Shown here piece after piece: positions 1 through 8,924 of a stretch of 10,451 nucleotides of DNA. Source of the DNA: a virus (lineage: Duplodnaviria; Heunggongvirae; Uroviricota; Caudoviricetes); IMG/VR virus record IMGVR_UViG_2563366843_000006; one strand, given 5' to 3'. The first letter of the stretch is position 1, and each line of letters starts with the position of its first letter. The notes below the pieces were generated by a model. That model saw only the letters and a list, made by a program, of their open reading frames with translations. It was not told where the DNA came from and ran no database searches. The translations under genes and the position numbers were made by a program.

Positions 1-600
1 ATGCGTAAATTATGTGCTGTTATTCTGTCCGCAGTAGTCTGGCTGGTTGCCGCTGGTACGCCAGCAAGCGCAGCAGAGCATCAGTCCACACTAAGCGCCG
101 GGTATCTTCAGACCCATACTGATATGCCAGGCAGTGATGACCTGAAGGGCATTAACGTGAAATACCGTTATGAATTTACGGACACGCTGGGGCTGGTGAC
201 GTCATTCAGTTATGCCAATGCCAAAGATGAGCAAAAAACGCATTACAGCGATACCCGCTGGCATGAAGATTCAGTGCGTAACCGCTGGTTCAGCATGATG
301 GCGGGGCCATCTGTACGCGTGAATGAATGGTTCAGTGCTTATGCGATGGCAGGTGTGGCTTACAGCCGTGTTTCGACTTTTTCCGGGGATTATCTCCGCG
401 TAACTGACAGCAAGGGGAAAACGCACGATGTGCTGACCGGAAGTGATGACGGTCGCCACAGCAACACGTCTCTGGCGTGGGGGGCTGGCGTGCAGTTTAA
501 CCCGACCGAATCCGTGGCCATTGATATTGCTTATGAAGGCTCCGGCAGTGGTGACTGGCGCACTGACGGTTTCATCGTGGGTGTCGGTTATAAATTCTGA
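1..600 (+). CDS. lom: Outer membrane protein Lom (Ail/Lom/PagC-family beta-barrel), prophage moron
   Basis: 199-aa ORF with an N-terminal signal peptide (MRKLCAVILSAVVWLVAAGTPASA/AEH), amphipathic beta-strand pattern and C-terminal Phe (GVGYKF). Closely matches my recollection of phage lambda Lom. Lies immediately upstream of stf as in lambda and is followed by an intrinsic terminator. Confidence 0.9.
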   Translation: MRKLCAVILSAVVWLVAAGTPASAAEHQSTLSAGYLQTHTDMPGSDDLKGINVKYRYEFTDTLGLVTSFSYANAKDEQKTHYSDTRWHEDSVRNRWFSMMAGPSVRVNEWFSAYAMAGVAYSRVSTFSGDYLRVTDSKGKTHDVLTGSDDGRHSNTSLAWGAGVQFNPTESVAIDIAYEGSGSGDWRTDGFIVGVGYKF

Positions 601-627
601 TTAGCCAGGTAACACAGTGTTATGACA

Positions 628-653
628 GCCCGCCGGTTCAGGCGGGCTTTTTT
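628..653 (+). terminator. Rho-independent terminator downstream of lom
   Basis: Perfect 7-bp GC-rich stem GCCCGCC (628-634) / GGCGGGC (641-647) with loop GGTTCA, followed by TTTTTT (648-653). Confidence 0.65.
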
Positions 654-664
654 GTGGAGTGGAT

Positions 665-3040
665 ATGGCAGCAGTAAAAATCTCAGGTGTGCTGAAAGAT
701 GGTGCGGGAAAACCAATACAGAACTGCACTATTCAACTGAAGGCAAAGCGTAACAGCACCACGGTACTGGTGAACACGGTGGCCTCTGAAAATCCGGATG
801 AAGCCGGGCGTTACAGCATGGATGTTGAGTATGGCCAGTACAGCGTCATCCTGCTGGTTGAAGGTTTTCCGCCTTCACATGCCGGGACCATTACCGTCTA
901 TGAAGGCTCCAGACCAGGTACGCTGAATGATTTTCTCGGTGCCATGACGGAAGAGGATGTCATGCCGGAGGCATTGCGTCGTTTTGAGGCAATGGTGGAA
1001 GAAGTGGCACGCAACGCCGAAGCCGCCTCTCAGAGCGCAGCGGCGGCAAAGAAATCCGAAACTGCAGCGGCATCATCGAAGAACGCGGCGAAAACCTCAG
1101 AAACGAATGCAGCTAACAGCGCACAGGCGGCAGCGACCTCACAGACTGCATCGGCAAACTCCGCGACAGCAGCCAAAAAATCAGAAACCAATGCGAAAAA
1201 CAGCGAGACAGCCGCAAAGACGAGCGAAACCAACGCAAAGTCCAGCCAGACGGCAGCGAAAACCAGCGAAACGAATGCCAAAGCCAGTGAAACTGCGGCG
1301 AAAAACAGCCAGGATGCAGCGGCCCAAAGCGAGAGTGCCGCAGCTGGTTCTGCGACTTCAGCAGCTGGATCAGCAACTGCTGCGGCTAACAGCCAGAAAG
1401 CTGCGAAGACGAGTGAAACCAACGCAAAGTCCAGCCAGACGGCAGCGAAAACCAGCGAAACGAATGCCAAAGCCAGTGAAACTGCGGCGAAAAGCAGTCA
1501 GGATGCAGCAGCCGAAAGCGAGAGTGCTGCAGCTGGCTCTGCAAGCGCGGCGGCTGCTTCTGCCACTGCATCAGCCAACAGTCAAAAAGCTGCAAAAACC
1601 AGTGAAACCAACGCAAAGGCGAGCGAGACTGCGGCGGCTAACTCGGCGAAAGCATCCGCTGCAAGCCAGACGGCTGCAAAAGCAAGTGAAGACGCAGCCA
1701 GAGAGTATGCAAGCCAGGCTGCGGAGCCGTATAAACAAGTATTGCAGCCGCTTCCCGATGTGTGGATACCGTTTAACGATTCACTGGATATGATTACGGG
1801 CTTTTCGCCGTCATATAAAAAGATTGTTATTGGTGATGATGAAATAACGATGCCTGGCGATAAGGTTGTAAAGTTTAAACGCGCATCAAAAGCAACTTAC
1901 ATTAATAAATCTGGTGTGCTGACAGAGGCTGCCATTGACGAGCCACGGTTTGAACGTGATGGCCTGCTTATTGAGGGGCAAAGAACAAACTACATGCTCA
2001 ATTCGGAAAACCCTGCCAGTTGGGGGCGATCGTCAAATATGGATGTGCCCGAAACAGGGACGGATAGTTTTGGTTTTACCTATGGAAAGTTTGTCTGCAA
2101 CGATTCTCTGATTGGGCAAACCTCAGCCATTAATATGGCATCAATTGCTGCAACAAAGTCAGTTGATGTCTCAGGCGATAATAAACACGTGACAACCTCA
2201 TGTCGTTTTAAAACAGAACTGCAGGTAAGGTTGCGTATCCGGTTTGATAAATATGACGGTAGCGCAACAACTTTTCTTGGTGATGCGTATATTGATACAC
2301 AAACGCTTGAAATTAATATGACAGGCGGTGCTGCCTCAAGGATTACTGCGAGAGTCAGAAAGGACGAAGCTACCGGATGGATTTTTGCAGAGGCAACAAT
2401 TCAGGCAATTGATGGGGAGCTAAAAATAGGCTCTCAGATACAGTATTCTCCTAAGCAGAGCGGGGCAACCGTATCTGGTGACTATATTTATCTGGCCACC
2501 CCACAAGTAGAAGATGGGCCTTGTGTATCATCTTTTATTATATCAGGAGCGACGGCGGCGACCCGCGCAAGCGATATAGTTACAGTTCCAATTAAGAATA
2601 ATCTTTATAATCTTCCTTTTACGGTTCTTTGTGAGGTACATAAGAACTGGTATAAAACGCCAAATGCAGCGCCACGTGTTTTTGATACCGGCGGTCATCA
2701 AACCGGAGCGGCTATTATTCTTGGCTTCGGTCGTTCAACAGATTACGACGGATTTCCTTATTGCGATATTGGAGGAGCTAACAGACGGGTAAACGAAAAC
2801 GCATCGCTTGAAAAAATGGTTATGGGGATGCGTGTAAAGTCAGAGCAGTCTACGTGCTCAGTAAGTAACGGGCATATATCCAGCGAAACAAAAACCACAT
2901 GGTCCTGTATTCAGAACACCGCAATTATCCGTATTGGAGGCCAGACTACAGCCGGGTTACGTCATTTATTTGGTCATGTCAGGAATTTCAGAATATGGCA
3001 CAAGGCATTGACTGATGCTCAGGTGGGGGAGTCAATCTAA
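665..3040 (+). CDS. stf: Side tail fibre protein (lambda Stf-like N-terminal anchor, Ala/Ser/Thr-rich repetitive shaft, divergent C-terminal receptor-binding region)
   Basis: Long ORF (track 659-3040 from GTG). ATG at 665 is preferred because GGAG at 656-659 sits 5 nt upstream. N-terminus MAAVKISGVLKDGAGKPIQNCTIQLKAKRNSTTVLVNT... matches my recollection of lambda Stf. Central KTSETNAK-type repeats. The C-terminal ~430 aa is more AT-rich and ends ...LRHLFGHVRNFRIWHKALTDAQVGESI, reminiscent of a LamG/concanavalin-like lectin fold (tentative). Confidence 0.85.
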   Translation: MAAVKISGVLKDGAGKPIQNCTIQLKAKRNSTTVLVNTVASENPDEAGRYSMDVEYGQYSVILLVEGFPPSHAGTITVYEGSRPGTLNDFLGAMTEEDVMPEALRRFEAMVEEVARNAEAASQSAAAAKKSETAAASSKNAAKTSETNAANSAQAAATSQTASANSATAAKKSETNAKNSETAAKTSETNAKSSQTAAKTSETNAKASETAAKNSQDAAAQSESAAAGSATSAAGSATAAANSQKAAKTSETNAKSSQTAAKTSETNAKASETAAKSSQDAAAESESAAAGSASAAAASATASANSQKAAKTSETNAKASETAAANSAKASAASQTAAKASEDAAREYASQAAEPYKQVLQPLPDVWIPFNDSLDMITGFSPSYKKIVIGDDEITMPGDKVVKFKRASKATYINKSGVLTEAAIDEPRFERDGLLIEGQRTNYMLNSENPASWGRSSNMDVPETGTDSFGFTYGKFVCNDSLIGQTSAINMASIAATKSVDVSGDNKHVTTSCRFKTELQVRLRIRFDKYDGSATTFLGDAYIDTQTLEINMTGGAASRITARVRKDEATGWIFAEATIQAIDGELKIGSQIQYSPKQSGATVSGDYIYLATPQVEDGPCVSSFIISGATAATRASDIVTVPIKNNLYNLPFTVLCEVHKNWYKTPNAAPRVFDTGGHQTGAAIILGFGRSTDYDGFPYCDIGGANRRVNENASLEKMVMGMRVKSEQSTCSVSNGHISSETKTTWSCIQNTAIIRIGGQTTAGLRHLFGHVRNFRIWHKALTDAQVGESI
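1211..1623. repeat. In-frame tandem duplication inside stf, period 189 bp (63 aa), about 2.2 copies, embedded in a wider field of shorter KTSETNAK-coding repeats (about 1040-1690)
   Basis: Near-identical blocks: CAACGCAAAGTCCAGCCAGACGGCAGCGAAAACCAGCGAAACGAATGCCAAAGCCAGTGAAACTGCGGCGAAAA starts at 1231 and again at 1420; a third partial unit begins near 1610. Confidence 0.75.
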
Positions 3041-3321
3041 TGAAAGATTTAACACTCAAATTTGCCGACAGGGCCGACTTTTCGGCCTTTATGGATAGCA
3101 CTGGCTATTATGATGACGAGTCGATGCAGGATGATATTCTTATCGACGTGATAGGTAACGTGTACAAAGAAACCGGAGAACTGACTGAAGATGGCGAACC
3201 GGTATGTGTTAAGGAAGACGGATATTTTGTAAACGTGCGCATCATTAATGATTCGCAAATATCGTCATTATTCGATGAATACGTGGTTGCTGTTGAGCAT
3301 CAACTTCGTGGCTGGATGTGA
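3040..3321 (+). CDS. Hypothetical small acidic protein (93 aa), translationally coupled to stf; possibly tail-fibre associated
   Basis: ATG at 3040 overlaps the stf stop TAA (3038-3040) by 1 nt; GGGGGAG 8 nt upstream. Asp/Glu-rich, no TM segment. Function not recognisable by eye. Confidence 0.55.
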   Translation: MKDLTLKFADRADFSAFMDSTGYYDDESMQDDILIDVIGNVYKETGELTEDGEPVCVKEDGYFVNVRIINDSQISSLFDEYVVAVEHQLRGWM

Positions 3322-3330
3322 GGAAGAAAA

Positions 3331-4371
3331 ATGGCTACATCGACAGTAATTCCTGATGACATCAAAACGCTAAAATCCGACGTTAGCAAATTAAAAAACG
3401 ATCAAGGAAGCTACGCAACAAAATTATATGTAGACAGCAAAGATGAAATCGTTGGTGACTGGTCTGCTTCATGGTATCAGCAGGTATTGCCAACTAGCGG
3501 AGCTATATTTGGGAGAAAACTCCGCTCAACTCACAGGACGGCAGGTGTTGAGGATGCGTATTGCGAACTATACCTCAAAAAATGGATAGACAGTCCAGGT
3601 AACGCAATGGCGCGCCTTAACCTGAACGATAACGGGACAAACATTTGCTGGGACTTTACCAACCTTTATGGCGGTACGATGATTTTTCCCGGTGACAGCG
3701 GATACCTCAAAATGGGTAACTGCCTTATGTCATACAGCAAGCGTGGAAGTAGCGCGCTTATTAAATTTGATTACACCGACACATTACAGATCAAATATGC
3801 CAATCATGGGTCAACCATGACATTAAACACACAGGGAACCGCTTATGCTGGTGTTACTGCTCAATTGTGGGGCAACTCCAGCCGTCCTGTTGTTTATGAA
3901 GTCGGTGTTGATGGTGGCGCTTATATGTTCTATGCGCAGAAAAATACCGATAACACCTATATGTTAAGCGTTAATGGTGCATGTCATGCCACCGCATTTA
4001 ACCAGCATTCCGACCGGGATCTGAAAGACAACATTCAGGTGATCGATAATGCAACCGACCGCATCCGTAAAATGAACGGCTATACATACACGCTTAAAGA
4101 AAACGGTATGCCCTATGCTGGTGTCATTGCACAGGAAGCTCTGGAAGCAATCCCAGAAGTTGTAGGTTCCGCAATGAAATATCAGGACGGTGCGAGCGGA
4201 TCGGAAGGTGAAGAAGGTGAACGTTATTACACAGTAGATCATTCTGGTGTTACTGGCTTGCTTGTTCAGGTAGCCAGAGAGTCAGACGACAGGATAACAG
4301 CACTGGAAGAAGAAAACGCAGAATTAAGACAAAGATTATCTGCAATTGAGGCGGCGCTTGCGTCTAAATAA
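3331..4371 (+). CDS. Tail fibre/tailspike-like protein with C-terminal intramolecular chaperone auto-processing domain (peptidase S74-like)
   Basis: 346-aa ORF with AGGAAG SD 4 nt upstream. The C-terminal ~115 aa (SDRDLKDNIQVIDNATDRIRKMNGYTYTLKENGMPYAGVIAQEALEAIPEVV...YYTVDHSGVTGLLVQVARESDDRITALEEENAELRQRLSAIEAAL) matches the pattern of the chaperone domain of phage endosialidases and T5 L-shaped fibre pb1: Ser-Asp at the expected autocleavage point, a VIAQE...PE segment, and a terminal coiled coil. Confidence 0.8.
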   Translation: MATSTVIPDDIKTLKSDVSKLKNDQGSYATKLYVDSKDEIVGDWSASWYQQVLPTSGAIFGRKLRSTHRTAGVEDAYCELYLKKWIDSPGNAMARLNLNDNGTNICWDFTNLYGGTMIFPGDSGYLKMGNCLMSYSKRGSSALIKFDYTDTLQIKYANHGSTMTLNTQGTAYAGVTAQLWGNSSRPVVYEVGVDGGAYMFYAQKNTDNTYMLSVNGACHATAFNQHSDRDLKDNIQVIDNATDRIRKMNGYTYTLKENGMPYAGVIAQEALEAIPEVVGSAMKYQDGASGSEGEEGERYYTVDHSGVTGLLVQVARESDDRITALEEENAELRQRLSAIEAALASK

Positions 4372-4377
4372 TATTAA

Positions 4378-4400
4378 GGGGCCGAGTGCCCCGTTTTATT
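4378..4400 (+). terminator. Possible weak intrinsic terminator after the fibre-like gene
   Basis: GGGGC (4378-4382) / GCCCC (4388-4392) stem with 5-nt loop, then GTTTTATT. Short stem, so possibly only partial termination. Confidence 0.4.
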
Positions 4401-4413
4401 GGGTAGGATGAAA

Positions 4414-4701
4414 ATGGATATAACACCTTTCCTTCATGCGCTTTGTGCTGTGGCTGCGCAGCTACTGATTGGTCTTTTTACCGGAAACTGGGCTTACGGG
4501 GCGATAGCCGGTTGTACGTTCTTCATTGCTCGTGAACATACCCAGGCAGAATATCGCTGGATTGAAATGTTCGGGCATGGCAAGCGTATGAATATGCCGT
4601 GGTGGGGTGGTTTTGATCCACGCGTGTGGGATGTAGGAAGCCTTATGGATTTTTCTGTGCCGGTGGTGGCGTGTCTGCTGGTCTGGCTGTTTATCCGTTA
4701 A
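4414..4701 (+). CDS. Small predicted inner-membrane protein (about 96 aa), unknown function
   Basis: ORF in track (4399-4701 from TTG). ATG at 4414 preferred because AGGA at 4405-4408 sits 5 nt upstream. Hydrophobic segments FLHALCAVAAQLLIGLFTGNWAYGAIAGCTFFIA and SVPVVACLLVWLFI suggest 2-3 TM helices. Confidence 0.6.
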   Translation: MDITPFLHALCAVAAQLLIGLFTGNWAYGAIAGCTFFIAREHTQAEYRWIEMFGHGKRMNMPWWGGFDPRVWDVGSLMDFSVPVVACLLVWLFIR

Positions 4702-4850
4702 ACATAAAAAGCCGCAGCAACTTGTCATGGCAGAATACTGCGGCTGGCTGGTGAACTTCCGATAGTGCGAGTATTGAATGATTTCCAGCCATTACTGATT
4801 TTACGCATTTTTTGCATGAGAGGATTTGCACCTGCTCTCACAGACCATCT

Positions 4851-4927
4851 ATGACTGTACGCCACTATCTCTAGGGCTGCTATGTGCTGTGAGTTCAACC
4901 AATGTACGAACAGCCAGAAGCGGACAA
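4851..4927. repeat. Left copy of an imperfect inverted repeat bracketing the AT-rich cargo operon (core TATGTGCTGTGAGTTCAA at 4881-4898)
   Basis: Reverse complement of 8344-8410 aligns by hand with an 18/18 identical core plus flanks of about 21/29 and partial matches beyond, with one ~9-nt indel. Confidence 0.65.
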
Positions 4928-5037
4928 ATGATGACAAACTATATGCTCATCAACGTAGAGTAAGCCACTCAGTTGATGATGGGAGTGGGTTGCCTGCTGC
5001 CATCACTATTGTCGATTCTTAAGTGTACGCACTCTAA

Positions 5038-5068
5038 TTTACAGTTGCTTCATAGCGTAAAATATGAT
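5038..5068 (+). promoter_or_regulatory. Candidate sigma70-like promoter for the cargo operon (TTTACA ... TATGAT); weak, with non-optimal 19-nt spacer
   Basis: -35-like TTTACA at 5038-5043 and -10-like TATGAT at 5063-5068, about 90 nt upstream of the first ATG. Judged by eye only. Confidence 0.2.
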
Positions 5069-5157
5069 TTAAGATCAAAGACGTTTACATCTCGTACCTC
5101 ACAAGCAGCTTTTACTTGCTGAGGGCGGTAGCGTTTCTATTATTATCTCAAATCAAT

Positions 5158-6150
5158 ATGGATAATGTAATGAGTGAAACTAAACACATATCTGAAATGG
5201 CAGAAAGGGTGGCAAATAATTTATTCTCAATTTTTAAATGGAAAAGGAAGATTGCTTCCGATTTCAGTTGGGATTGTGTAAGCCCTGATGAACATGGAGG
5301 AAAAAAAGATCATCCGTCTGATTGCGTTTTTTATTACAGAGATCCCTATGATAATGAAGTTAAATATATTAATACTGATCTTAAGAGTTATGCGAAAGGC
5401 TCAATAACAAAAGAGCAAATTAATAAAGCAATCAGTTCTCTTTCCTATGCAACGAATTGCGCACCATATAATGATAATTGGAAAAGGTTATTTAAACCAG
5501 AAGGGAATTGGTCTGTAATAGGTATGCTGTTTGTTTATAATCATTGCGGTGAATATAATGGGGACTTTAATGAAATAGTTAAGGCGGTTGAAAATGATGT
5601 CAATCATTTGGATAATGAAAAAATGATATATATTTTCTCCCCAGATAGAATTAGAATATTAAATAGTATTGCTAATGATATCAATGTAATGATAGGGAAA
5701 GAAGAATTACCGTCTAAAAATCATTTTAGCTTCTTTCATCCCAATGAGATATTAACAAAAAATCATTTCAACCATGATTATTCTGAGCCAGCAACTATTA
5801 ATGTTCTTTCTTCACCTTGGATTATAATTAAGCATGCAGATTGTGAGAATGAAAAGGCAGGCTATTTAATATATTATACTAAAGATGGTTCAGAAGATGA
5901 CGAATTTGACTATTTTATTGATGCTCTAAGCTATTACCAAATAATCAATAATACAAGTAATGTCAGAATCAAATTAACAATAAAAAATGAATTTGCAGCA
6001 AGTAATCTTTTAAACTCAATTAGTAAATACTATCAGTCTCTCGGTCGTACCGAAAAAGAATCAATGCAAATCGCCAATACAATGGTAAAAGGTACTATTG
6101 ATTTGGTTACACCACAGTTTTCTGCTAATGAAATTGGAGTTTTACCATGA
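5158..6150 (+). CDS. Hypothetical protein A of AT-rich three-gene operon (about 331 aa); N-terminal region has a tentative PD-(D/E)xK nuclease-like motif arrangement
   Basis: Long ORF in a roughly 30% G+C region; track ORF 5116-6150 begins at TTG. First ATG is at 5158, alternative at 5170; neither has a strong SD. Stop TGA overlaps the start of gene B (ATGA at 6147-6150). Asn/Lys/Ile/Tyr-rich, no TM or signal peptide. Confidence 0.75.
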   Translation: MDNVMSETKHISEMAERVANNLFSIFKWKRKIASDFSWDCVSPDEHGGKKDHPSDCVFYYRDPYDNEVKYINTDLKSYAKGSITKEQINKAISSLSYATNCAPYNDNWKRLFKPEGNWSVIGMLFVYNHCGEYNGDFNEIVKAVENDVNHLDNEKMIYIFSPDRIRILNSIANDINVMIGKEELPSKNHFSFFHPNEILTKNHFNHDYSEPATINVLSSPWIIIKHADCENEKAGYLIYYTKDGSEDDEFDYFIDALSYYQIINNTSNVRIKLTIKNEFAASNLLNSISKYYQSLGRTEKESMQIANTMVKGTIDLVTPQFSANEIGVLP

Positions 6151-7253
6151 GTAATCCTGAGAAAAAATTTGGTCATAGTATTTACTACATGAACGATCAA
6201 AATATTAGGGATGGTTTACTAGCGCAGAAAGTTAAAGCATCACATTTGATAAAAATTTTAAAAGATCGCAACATTTTAGTATCACCTCTATCTTCAAAAG
6301 AAGAACTGATAAACATGTTAAAGTTTATCAGATTCGATTATTATGATTATGTTTATTTATCATCAATTCTTGCAAATCAAGATAAAAAAGAAAGTAAGTC
6401 AAGTATTGATATAGATAAGAAAGTCACTGCTAAGCAAATATTAAGTACGTTTGAGTCGATTAAAGGAGTGTTAGAAGCTCGTCAAATTACAGCCGAGGTT
6501 TCTAAACAAAACAGTAAAAAAATAACTATCAACTTTGAGTATGTTGAGTTTGATCATTCGAAACCACCTATGCGTCAAAAATCATTCCGTAAAGGGGTAG
6601 TTGAATGTGATATAACTGCTACAGGTGCGATGCTTAATTATCCAGCAAATAAAGTTGGGGCAATAATAAAAGACCATTTAATCACACAACTTTCCAAAAA
6701 GTTAGATACTGAATTGAAGCCAATCGAATTTGATTTTGAGAACTCCAGTGTTGCAACTAGAAATAATTTCTTCCTTAGTGTAATCAATAATGTTGAAAAG
6801 TATGAAGTATACGATGTTGTCACTGTGGCAGTTAAGAAGATAGAAGAGAAAAAAGGAAAGGAAAGCTCCTCGTCAGCGGATTCAGACAATGATTCGGTAG
6901 GGGAAGCATTTACTGGAGAAGTTAGAAACGCCATTCTACGCGGAAATCAGATTTTAACTTCAAAAGTATACAGTGGGTTAAATACAGGGAATTATTATAT
7001 TTATAAAATTACTTGGAAGATTAGAGAAATAATTCCGGGCTTGGGATCTGAACAATCTGATTGTTATACGGTTGAGATTGAGTTTAGTGATAAAGATAAG
7101 GCTAAAGGACTAAAGTATTGTGTTAAAACTGTTCAGCGATTCTCCTCAAAAAATAGACTGAATGTTACAACTGAAAATCCTTTAAAAAATGAGCAAGAAA
7201 AATTAGGAAAGCTCATTTATAAAACAGCCCTAGATGTCTATTCTAAAATATAA
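6147..7253 (+). CDS. Hypothetical protein B of AT-rich three-gene operon (368 aa); two regions separated by a Ser/Asp-rich acidic linker
   Basis: ATG at 6147 with GGAG SD at 6136-6139 (7-nt spacing), overlapping the gene A stop. No recognisable catalytic signature by eye; linker KKGKESSSSADSDNDSVGEAF at about 6850-6910. Confidence 0.8.
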   Translation: MSNPEKKFGHSIYYMNDQNIRDGLLAQKVKASHLIKILKDRNILVSPLSSKEELINMLKFIRFDYYDYVYLSSILANQDKKESKSSIDIDKKVTAKQILSTFESIKGVLEARQITAEVSKQNSKKITINFEYVEFDHSKPPMRQKSFRKGVVECDITATGAMLNYPANKVGAIIKDHLITQLSKKLDTELKPIEFDFENSSVATRNNFFLSVINNVEKYEVYDVVTVAVKKIEEKKGKESSSSADSDNDSVGEAFTGEVRNAILRGNQILTSKVYSGLNTGNYYIYKITWKIREIIPGLGSEQSDCYTVEIEFSDKDKAKGLKYCVKTVQRFSSKNRLNVTTENPLKNEQEKLGKLIYKTALDVYSKI

Positions 7254-7268
7254 ATGGGGGATGGCATT

Positions 7269-7946
7269 ATGGAAAAAAGAATCGTTTTTTATGATTTTGA
7301 AACTCCTTTTAATCAGGAGCAAATCAGCAAAAGATTGATTGAAAACCAATTTACAAAAGATGCGATCTCAGGTTTTAGTTTACAGAAAAATAATAGTACT
7401 GGGATTTACTTCCGACATATTAAAAAGATTATTAACATTGACGTTGTGTTAACACCTTTTGGTGAAGAATATGAAAATACCACAATCGCCTACGCTACCA
7501 ATGAGGTGAAAATAACTGATAAGTCTCTTCGTATAATTAACCCATCTAGAACACTTGCTCCCTTTCGAACAGATTTGGTGAAGTCTCTAGACTTTCAGTG
7601 CACTATAAGTAATAAGAATATAGAATTAAGTCCACTATTGTTATCTTTGAGAGAAAGGAATGTTAATATCAACTTGACTGATATTGAACTTACTACATAT
7701 GACCTCTTTAAGGATTCTCGAGTTAAAATGGTCATTTCTTCTAATAGTGATTTAATTGGCAAAGCAGAATCCTATTTAAATAATGTTAAGTCCAACATCA
7801 CAAAAATAGGTTTTTCTTTATTGTTTAATGGTGATTATTATTTTGTTGAAATTGGTTGTAAAGGTTCATTGAAAATATCAGGGGATTTAATAGAGGATAA
7901 TTTGGAATATTATATTATTAATGAAATTCTATCTTTAGATGCTTAA
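7269..7946 (+). CDS. Hypothetical protein C of AT-rich three-gene operon (225 aa from ATG 7269; 230 aa if ATG 7254 is used)
   Basis: ORF directly abutting the gene B stop (TAA 7251-7253). GGGGGA at 7256-7261 is 7 nt upstream of ATG 7269, favouring that start. AT-rich codon usage like A and B; followed by a terminator at 8027-8057. Confidence 0.75.
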   Translation: MEKRIVFYDFETPFNQEQISKRLIENQFTKDAISGFSLQKNNSTGIYFRHIKKIINIDVVLTPFGEEYENTTIAYATNEVKITDKSLRIINPSRTLAPFRTDLVKSLDFQCTISNKNIELSPLLLSLRERNVNINLTDIELTTYDLFKDSRVKMVISSNSDLIGKAESYLNNVKSNITKIGFSLLFNGDYYFVEIGCKGSLKISGDLIEDNLEYYIINEILSLDA

Positions 7947-8026
7947 CCGCCTTGCTGTTGTGGGGGAAGTTTGAAAGTTAATATTTATTAACAAACATAT
8001 TGTTTTTATACCGTTTTTTAAAAAAA

Positions 8027-8057
8027 AGAGTCGAGACTTAAAGCGGCTCTTTTTTTA
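8027..8057 (+). terminator. Intrinsic terminator closing the three-gene operon (possibly bidirectional)
   Basis: Stem AGAGTCG (8027-8033) / CGGCTCT (8044-8050) including one G-U pair, 10-nt loop, then TTTTTTT (8051-8057); A-tract immediately upstream. Confidence 0.5.
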
Positions 8058-8343
8058 TTAGTTGTTGGGTTGAATTGAATTTTAAAATAAGTTCCTGCAA
8101 TAAGAACGAACCAAGTAAACGATCTGGAAATTATTAATCTTTTCCTCCCGATGAAGATTCTTCTGAGTGCGGATCAAAGTAACTTAACGTTACTTTCCTC
8201 ACCAACACAAAGTAAAAAGGTATTTTTTAAATGTAAAATAGTCAAATCCGACGAAAAGTATAAATTAATATACTTGATTTGTTCCTGTTATTTCCTGGCC
8301 AACCTGCAACAATTGGAAGTGGCAACTAAAATTTGCTATGTAT

Positions 8344-8410
8344 ATGTTCGCTTGTCGCTGTGCGTCCATCGATTGAACTCACAGCACATAACAGACATTC
8401 ACTACAGTTA
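8344..8410. repeat. Right copy of the imperfect inverted repeat bracketing the cargo operon (core TTGAACTCACAGCACATA at 8373-8390, the reverse complement of 4881-4898)
   Basis: See left copy. The two copies face each other across about 3.4 kb containing only the three AT-rich genes and their terminator. Confidence 0.65.
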
Positions 8411-8762: not shown

Positions 8763-8924
8763 CTGCGCCATATGGGCTGGACTGAAGCCGCAGACTTGAT
8801 TGTTAAAGGTATGGAAGGCGCAATCAATGCGAAGACCGTAACCTATGATTTCGAACGTCTGATGGAAGGTGCTAAACTGCTGAAATGCAGCGAGTTTGGT
8901 GATGCGATCATCAAGAACATGTAA
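8763..8924 (+). pseudogene. icd: Orphan 3' fragment of isocitrate dehydrogenase gene (last ~54 codons, icdC-like), marking the prophage/host junction (attR side)
   Basis: In-frame translation [53 protein letters not shown] matches my recollection of the E. coli Icd C-terminus. No icd sequence upstream, where unrelated AT-rich DNA begins at about 8760. Followed by a strong terminator. Confidence 0.85.

Follow-up and report, generated by a model that had tools for sequence, protein, structure and literature searches.

A divergent 3HP-type cassette at the end of an Escherichia coli prophage encodes a predicted PD-(D/E)xK nuclease related to GAPS4a

Our analysis of a 10,451-nucleotide stretch of prophage DNA (the window) makes it highly probable that positions 5314-5385 encode the catalytic β-hairpin of an N-terminal PD-(D/E)xK (restriction-endonuclease-fold) domain, and that the genes A, B and C, the first of which contains this segment, constitute a divergent 3HP cassette related to GAPS4. 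A sequence-only reading of the same DNA had tentatively placed protein A among the PD-(D/E)xK nucleases. The core of the predicted model, the Pfam family assigned to its homologs and the profile homology to GAPS4a support that reading in substance, with its motif corrected and the activity of A as a prediction. Protein A consists of this nuclease domain and a family-specific C-terminal region. The feature is not new in kind, as Pfam already has a family for the domain and the defense system to which the cassette belongs is a published one; the link among 3HP, GAPS4 and RdgC is modestly new.

The coordinates of the genes and of the other features of the window are collected in Table 1. The open reading frame of gene A also offers starts at ATG 5158 and TTG 5116, the conserved one being ATG 5170 (MSETK...), which is used in RefSeq and in all homologs. 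Residue numbers are counted here from ATG 5158, and 4 has to be subtracted to number them from ATG 5170. The start codon of B overlaps the stop codon of A (ATGA), and the open reading frame of C opens at 7254, with a GGGGGA Shine-Dalgarno sequence ahead of its ATG at 7269. A-B-C (5170-7946) is a translationally coupled three-gene operon and a low-GC cargo cassette. A search for a sigma-70 promoter upstream of A returned no convincing candidate. Approximately 80 nt after the stop codon of C, at 8028-8058, lies a short GC-containing hairpin (GAGTCG...CGGCTC) with an A-run on one side and a T-run on the other. The element resembles a bidirectional intrinsic terminator; its stem has one mismatch and a terminator scan made no call there.

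Table 1. Features of the window, with positions counted from its first nucleotide.
Feature	Coordinates	Strand	Remarks
lom	1-600		In the tail-gene part of the window
Long tail-fiber gene	659-3040		
Further tail-fiber genes	3040-4371		
Small membrane protein gene	4399-4701		Ahead of the low-GC block
Inverted repeat, left arm	4877-4929		53 nt, imperfect; 83% complementary to 8342-8394
Gene A	5170-6150	+	326 aa; Hp1 of 3HP; start of RefSeq WP_001605291.1 at 5170
E7 codon	5176-5178	+	E3 from ATG 5170; Glu of helix α1 (model helix 2-25); 80/80
HPSD to DLK segment of A	5314-5385	+	β2-turn-β3 hairpin of the predicted nuclease core; D55, D74-L-K76 and non-conserved E67-V-K69
N128-H129 codons	5539-5544	+	End of core strand β4 (LFVYNH[D/C]); invariant, 80/80
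Gene B	6147-7253	+	368 aa; Hp2 of 3HP; remote GAPS4b homolog
Gene C	7269-7946	+	225 aa; Hp3 of 3HP; predicted RdgC-like fold
Inverted repeat, right arm	8342-8394		53 nt, imperfect; pairs with 4877-4929
icd' fragment	8772-8924	+	Duplicated 3' end of isocitrate dehydrogenase, from its translation; annotated in the RefSeq genome as partial isocitrate/isopropylmalate dehydrogenase

The segment 5314-5385 encodes residues P53-K76 of protein A (PSDCVFYYRDPYDNEVKYINTDLK). D55 (5320-5322), E67-V-K69 (5356-5364) and D74-L-K76 (5377-5385) lie exactly at the positions given for them in the sequence-only reading, which had also warned that so short a motif could be due to chance. For the bare pattern the warning was justified. 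When protein A was shuffled 2000 times, D-x(10-20)-[DE]-x-K was found at least once in 86% of the shuffles and at least three times, the number observed in A, in 44% of them, so that in this form the pattern is present in A no more than expected by chance. The conservation of the individual residues is another matter. In an alignment with 80 homologs of A, taken from one-genome-per-species loci, E7, W28, C40, H52, P53, D55, D74, L75, K76, S77, N128 and H129 are invariant, while E67 is conserved in only 8 of the 80 sequences and K69 in 10. A second alignment, built from 34 database homologs with identities down to 30%, agrees with this conservation. These results indicate that D55 and D74-L-K76 form a genuine motif and that E67-V-K69 is a chance look-alike. 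Accordingly, of the two (D/E)xK triplets put forward earlier we retained D74-L-K76 and rejected E67-V-K69 as the catalytic one, and the warning about chance does not extend to D55, D74 and K76.

The acidic residue of the preceding helix had to be reassigned as well. The glutamates of the SEMAERVANNL segment, pointed to in the sequence-only reading, are both variable (E13 is found in 19 and E16 in 46 of the 80 homologs); the invariant glutamate of the helix is E7, which aligns with the invariant Glu of the GAPS4a 'MGE'. Many PD-(D/E)xK enzymes have an accessory acidic residue at an equivalent position in helix α1. Judging from the alignments, the motif of the A family reads E7 ... H-P-x-D55 ... 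D74-L-K76, and the predicted metal-binding and catalytic set would be E7, D55, D74 and K76, without E67-x-K69. The residues to mutate in A would then be D55, D74 and K76, rather than E67 or K69. Next to the invariant N128-H129 pair, residue 130 (5545-5547) is an Asp in 73 of the 80 homologs and a Cys in the E. coli/enterobacterial clade to which this protein belongs.

The AlphaFold2 model of A (pLDDT 85.9, pTM 0.88) comprises a helix (2-25), short strands, a strand at 56-61, a strand at 68-78, a helix at 85-104 and a strand at 118-128. The strand 56-61 starts right after D55 and the strand 68-78 contains D74-L-K76; a conserved Asp therefore opens core strand two and a (D/E)xK triplet lies on core strand three, within the 10-30 residues that separate the two in the PD-(D/E)xK superfamily. 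The α-β-β-β-α-β core that had been named earlier as the test of the fold is present in this model, whose structural matches are nucleases. Moreover, the precomputed Pfam family PF26115 ('PDDEXK_GAPS4') is assigned to all the homologs of A, including the 93%-identical P0001, and the UniRef title of one homolog is 'GAPS4 PD-(D/E)XK nuclease domain-containing protein'. When A, B and C were scanned against NCBIfam, PHROGs and a copy of Pfam lacking PF26115, no informative domain was returned, and profile searches of the three families against the PDB sequences recovered nothing meaningful. The frequency of the pattern among shuffled sequences, the poor conservation of E67-V-K69 and the lack of a match in Pfam (the copy without PF26115), NCBIfam and the PDB sequences are what could be expected if the motif were an accident of an Asp/Glu/Lys-rich protein and A were not a nuclease. 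We consider this explanation exceedingly improbable: D55, D74, L75 and K76 are shared by all 80 homologs among sequences with as little as 30% identity, which refutes it for D55, D74 and K76; the conserved residues fall on the canonical secondary-structure elements of a model that resembles nucleases; and the A family is homologous to GAPS4a, in which the equivalent Asp is needed for defense. The assignment of A as a PD-(D/E)xK nuclease is supported by the invariance of D55, D74, L75 and K76, from their placement in the secondary structure and from the homology to GAPS4a.

Next, we compared the three proteins with known defense systems. The PADLOC models Hp1, Hp2 and Hp3 matched A (E 6.7e-61), B (E 1.2e-27) and C (E 4.1e-13), respectively. 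We take these to be the models of the Rst_3HP system, 'Rst_3HP' being the DefenseFinder name in use, and the sequence comparison is consistent with that naming. In BLASTP searches with the HP1-HP3 protein sequences from Table S2 of Rousset et al. (PMC9122126), A showed 38% identity to HP1 (E 7e-64), B 25.6% identity over 363 aa to HP2 (E 2e-31) and C 28.7% identity to HP3 (E 2e-13); the family HMMs that we built scored 358 bits for HP2 and 195 bits for HP3. The HP+HP+HP system was found in a P2-like phage hotspot and protected E. coli against phage P1, the only one among eight phages against which the cloned system was effective (Rousset et al., 2022; PMC9122126). The same authors reported no clear domain in any of the 3HP proteins, their HHpred table holding sub-threshold matches only (PMC9122126). 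A-B-C shares with Rst_3HP three co-directional genes in the same order, the homology of all three proteins, the HPSD...TDLKSY sequence of HP1 and carriage by temperate phages. It differs in its divergent sequence (25-38% identity) and in its location, as the prophage that carries the cassette studied here is lambdoid and sits at icd, with the cassette at its tail-fiber/attR end and not in the P2 gpA-gpQ hotspot. By sequence homology, then, A-B-C is a divergent member of the known 3HP (HP+HP+HP, Rst_3HP) anti-phage system, and WP_001605291-293, three E. coli 'hypothetical proteins', could be named as a 3HP-type defense cassette with a putative PD-(D/E)xK nuclease effector.

GAPS4 is a two-gene anti-phage system of Vibrio GMT islands (Mahata et al., bioRxiv 10.1101/2023.03.28.534373). 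Its subunits assemble into an a2b2 heterotetramer of GAPS4a and GAPS4b, a non-selective DNase that attacks host and phage DNA alike, and the motif of GAPS4a is the non-canonical HGxD...SxK, in which an Asp-to-Ala change abolishes defense (bioRxiv 10.1101/2025.09.07.674715). The system responds to DNA breaks, whether these are caused by a phage infection, by nalidixic acid or by a T6SS DNase effector, makes the host sensitive to quinolones and DNase toxins and protects against many phages (bioRxiv 10.1101/2025.09.07.674715). For the comparison we used the GAPS4a sequences from File S1 of the paper together with GAPS4 loci from plasmids and viral contigs. A pairwise BLASTP of A against E. coli GAPS4a was below significance (E 0.43), and in it HPSD/HGID and DLK/SSK still aligned. 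At the profile level, hhalign matched the A family to six GAPS4a sequences with a probability of 97.6% (E 3.6e-12) and to fourteen of them with 98.7% (E 2.6e-16) over 241 columns. The B family gave a probability of 13.5% with two near-identical GAPS4b sequences, and the match became significant once seven viral-contig sequences were added, the resulting nine sequences giving 97.3% (E 1.6e-11) over 268 co-linear columns. The significance of both profile matches indicates that A and B are remote homologs of the two GAPS4 subunits, with an identity of only 10-18%.

The homology of A to GAPS4a extends over ~240 columns and includes the E...H-x-x-D...x-K core, the conserved Cys and the LF-x-x-N strand, and that of B to GAPS4b covers ~270 columns. 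PF26115, as assigned to the homologs of A, is common to both systems, the subunits are of similar size, and B, the GAPS4b homolog, is encoded immediately downstream of A. On the other hand, GAPS4 has two genes and no homolog of C at its loci, whereas A-B-C has three, and the A family carries the canonical HPxD...DxK in place of HGxD...SxK. The three-gene order and the HPxD...DxK motif make A-B-C a relative of GAPS4 and not a member of it. Furthermore, the a2b2 complex and the sensing of breaks are known for GAPS4 and would be expected of A-B by analogy; given the three genes and the different motif, the GAPS4 trigger and stoichiometry may not transfer to A-B-C. The other PD-(D/E)xK effectors that we considered, Shedu SduA, Hachiman HamA, Cap4, Upx and Hna, respond to DNA ends or aberrant DNA, have no sequence homology to A and differ from it in partners and domain architectures. 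In the searchable literature we found no paper that mentions 3HP together with GAPS4.

Protein C has no counterpart in GAPS4. The best structural match of its predicted model is RdgC, a toroidal, sequence-independent DNA-binding protein tied to the control of recombination; lambda RexA is another protein with the RdgC fold. The alignment behind the model was shallow, with 19 sequences of no less than 55% identity, and only two of the five models had a mean pLDDT above 70 (83.4 and 78.9). The likeness is one of predicted fold only: unlike RdgC of E. coli (PDB 2OWL; 301-303 aa), C is 225 aa long and so may lack a portion of the ring architecture, and it has no detectable sequence similarity to RdgC. 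Congruently, none of the 63 members of the C family matched the RdgC Pfam model, and a search of the PDB sequences with the C-family profile did not recover RdgC. The prediction is of an extra subunit with an RdgC fold, and an RdgC-like nature of Hp3 was not found in the searchable literature. In hhalign comparisons, C showed no sequence similarity to A, B, GAPS4b or the NA37-type genes that lie upstream of some GAPS4a genes (see below), and we discarded at the sequence level the idea that C is a split-off piece of GAPS4b or a relative of NA37.

A search of the literature returned no published mechanism for 3HP. By analogy, the homology of A and B to GAPS4a and GAPS4b suggests one that can be tested, namely a DNase triggered by DNA breaks, and the predicted RdgC-like third subunit would be what sets 3HP apart from GAPS4. 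We infer the nuclease activity, the formation of a complex, the trigger and the abortive outcome as follows. A and B would assemble like GAPS4a and GAPS4b and stay inactive until phage infection. The trigger would arise during the infection, as DNA ends, as breaks or as aberrant intermediates of replication or recombination, and would be sensed by B and/or by the RdgC-like C, which could contribute sensing or gating. A would then degrade DNA through its D55/D74/K76 site, with the assistance of E7, and phage replication would be stopped, with the infected cell probably dying as a result. As a tentative extension, which we hold to be less likely than not, 3HP could be a three-component elaboration of GAPS4, in which a GAPS4a/b-like nuclease is joined by an RdgC-like toroidal clamp, C, that recognizes DNA ends or intermediates of recombination and replication and licenses or restrains the E7/D55/D74/K76 site. 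If this were true, it would provide the first mechanism for 3HP and, taken with lambda RexA, would mean that the RdgC fold recurs in phage exclusion as a sensor of the state of DNA.

The chief competing explanation retains the PD-(D/E)xK fold and the defensive role and replaces the break-triggered, indiscriminate degradation of GAPS4 by another mechanism, such as the direct, targeted cleavage of phage DNA or of replication intermediates without cell death, or a trigger that is a phage protein. The third gene, strictly conserved here and absent from GAPS4, speaks in its favor, as do the canonical DxK in place of the SxK of GAPS4a, the identity of only 10-18% to the GAPS4 subunits and the protection range, which for the 3HP system tested covers P1 only of eight phages and for GAPS4 covers many. 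However, the co-linear homology of A and B to the two GAPS4 subunits points to a core machine common to the two systems, and an RdgC-like DNA ring suits the sensing of a DNA structure better than that of a protein. We therefore regard a mechanism unlike that of GAPS4 as less likely than not, and favor for A-B-C a nuclease that responds to the state of the DNA.

We then examined the setting of the cassette. The window covers the right-hand end of a lambdoid E. coli prophage that is integrated at icd. The icd' fragment, just downstream of A-B-C, is the junction between prophage and chromosome and is followed by the chromosomal genes iraM and ycgX; the duplication of icd directly 3' of the cassette places the attachment site of the prophage in icd. 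This arrangement shows that A-B-C occupies the last cargo position before attR. At position 5000 the GC content falls from ~0.48 to ~0.30, and it stays at 0.29-0.35 across 5000-8000, compared with 0.42-0.57 in the neighboring tail genes. An imperfect 53-nt inverted repeat flanks the low-GC cassette on both sides and may be a relic of its insertion or exchange. The region of its left arm is uncommon, with matches in only 10 E. coli genomes. The 3-kb block itself was found, with 99.9% identity, in only 4 of 5426 complete E. coli genomes, and A, B and C are all annotated as 'hypothetical protein' in these four. Within the tail-gene part, the open reading frame of the long tail-fiber gene holds a repetitive stretch rich in Ala, Ser, Thr and Lys (1000-1750, KTSETNAK-type repeats) with a strong AT skew of 0.63, and in the RefSeq genome that matches the window the gene is annotated as a pseudogene and as partial. 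An Rfam scan of the whole window detected no RNA family.

The whole family comprises ~570 clusters at 50% identity. Wherever the contig was long enough, A was followed by B and then by C in all of the 80 genome loci, which span Proteobacteria, Cyanobacteria, Acidobacteria, Verrucomicrobia, Bacteroidota and Myxococcota. We identified family members in a P2-like phage of Klebsiella, where the portal gene and gpA flank the site (the P2 gpQ-gpA hotspot), and in a Providencia P2-like prophage, adjoining a reverse transcriptase gene; further ones are present in Vibrio phage-like elements and on 22 plasmids. Carriage within phages, a filamentous Pf-like phage among them, would fit a recombination or DNA-processing module that benefits the phage and has no part in defense, pairing a nuclease with an RdgC-like modulator of RecA; the make-up of a nuclease plus a DNA-binding protein suits such a module, and the RdgC fold is tied to recombination control. 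We consider this very unlikely. A homologous three-gene cassette, cloned alone, gave phage resistance; the cassette occupies known defense hotspots (P2 gpQ-gpA); it occurs outside phage-gene neighborhoods too, on plasmids and in the chromosomes of many phyla; and its presence in so few E. coli genomes is the behavior of accessory cargo. If the cassette, taken as a defense system, sensitizes its host as GAPS4 does, its carriage by prophages of clinical E. coli and Klebsiella could entail a fitness cost.

Finally, we observed variants of the gene arrangement. The plasmid CP007061.1 of Halobacterium sp. DL1 carries at 3307-6273 an archaeal version with the gene order C-A-B, its three genes being recognized with hhalign probabilities of 97.0, 97.8 and 97.7% and confirmed by PHROG matches. 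The motif of its A homolog, HGID...ESK, is intermediate between those of 3HP (HPxD...DxK) and GAPS4 (HGxD...SxK). At two GAPS4-type two-gene loci from IMG/VR contigs, a gene for NA37 (PF04245, the 37-kDa nucleoid-associated protein) abuts the start of GAPS4a (L096, 2935-3978; L098, 2913-3995), and by analogy NA37 may be an alternative DNA-binding third subunit, comparable to the RdgC-like C. In a third one (L100) a shorter upstream gene, at 2979-3659, ends ~340 nt before GAPS4a; its N-terminus is similar to that of the NA37-type genes, and the gene gave no match to the NA37 model. The archaeal order and the NA37-GAPS4 variants point to an accessory DNA-binding subunit that can be swapped for another. 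The Pseudomonas phage 54-4 (OR621021.1), a 13-kb Pf-like filamentous phage, has a complete A-B-C cassette at 485-3252, adjoining its repressor and excisionase genes, and is unusually small for a carrier of a 2.8-kb defense system.
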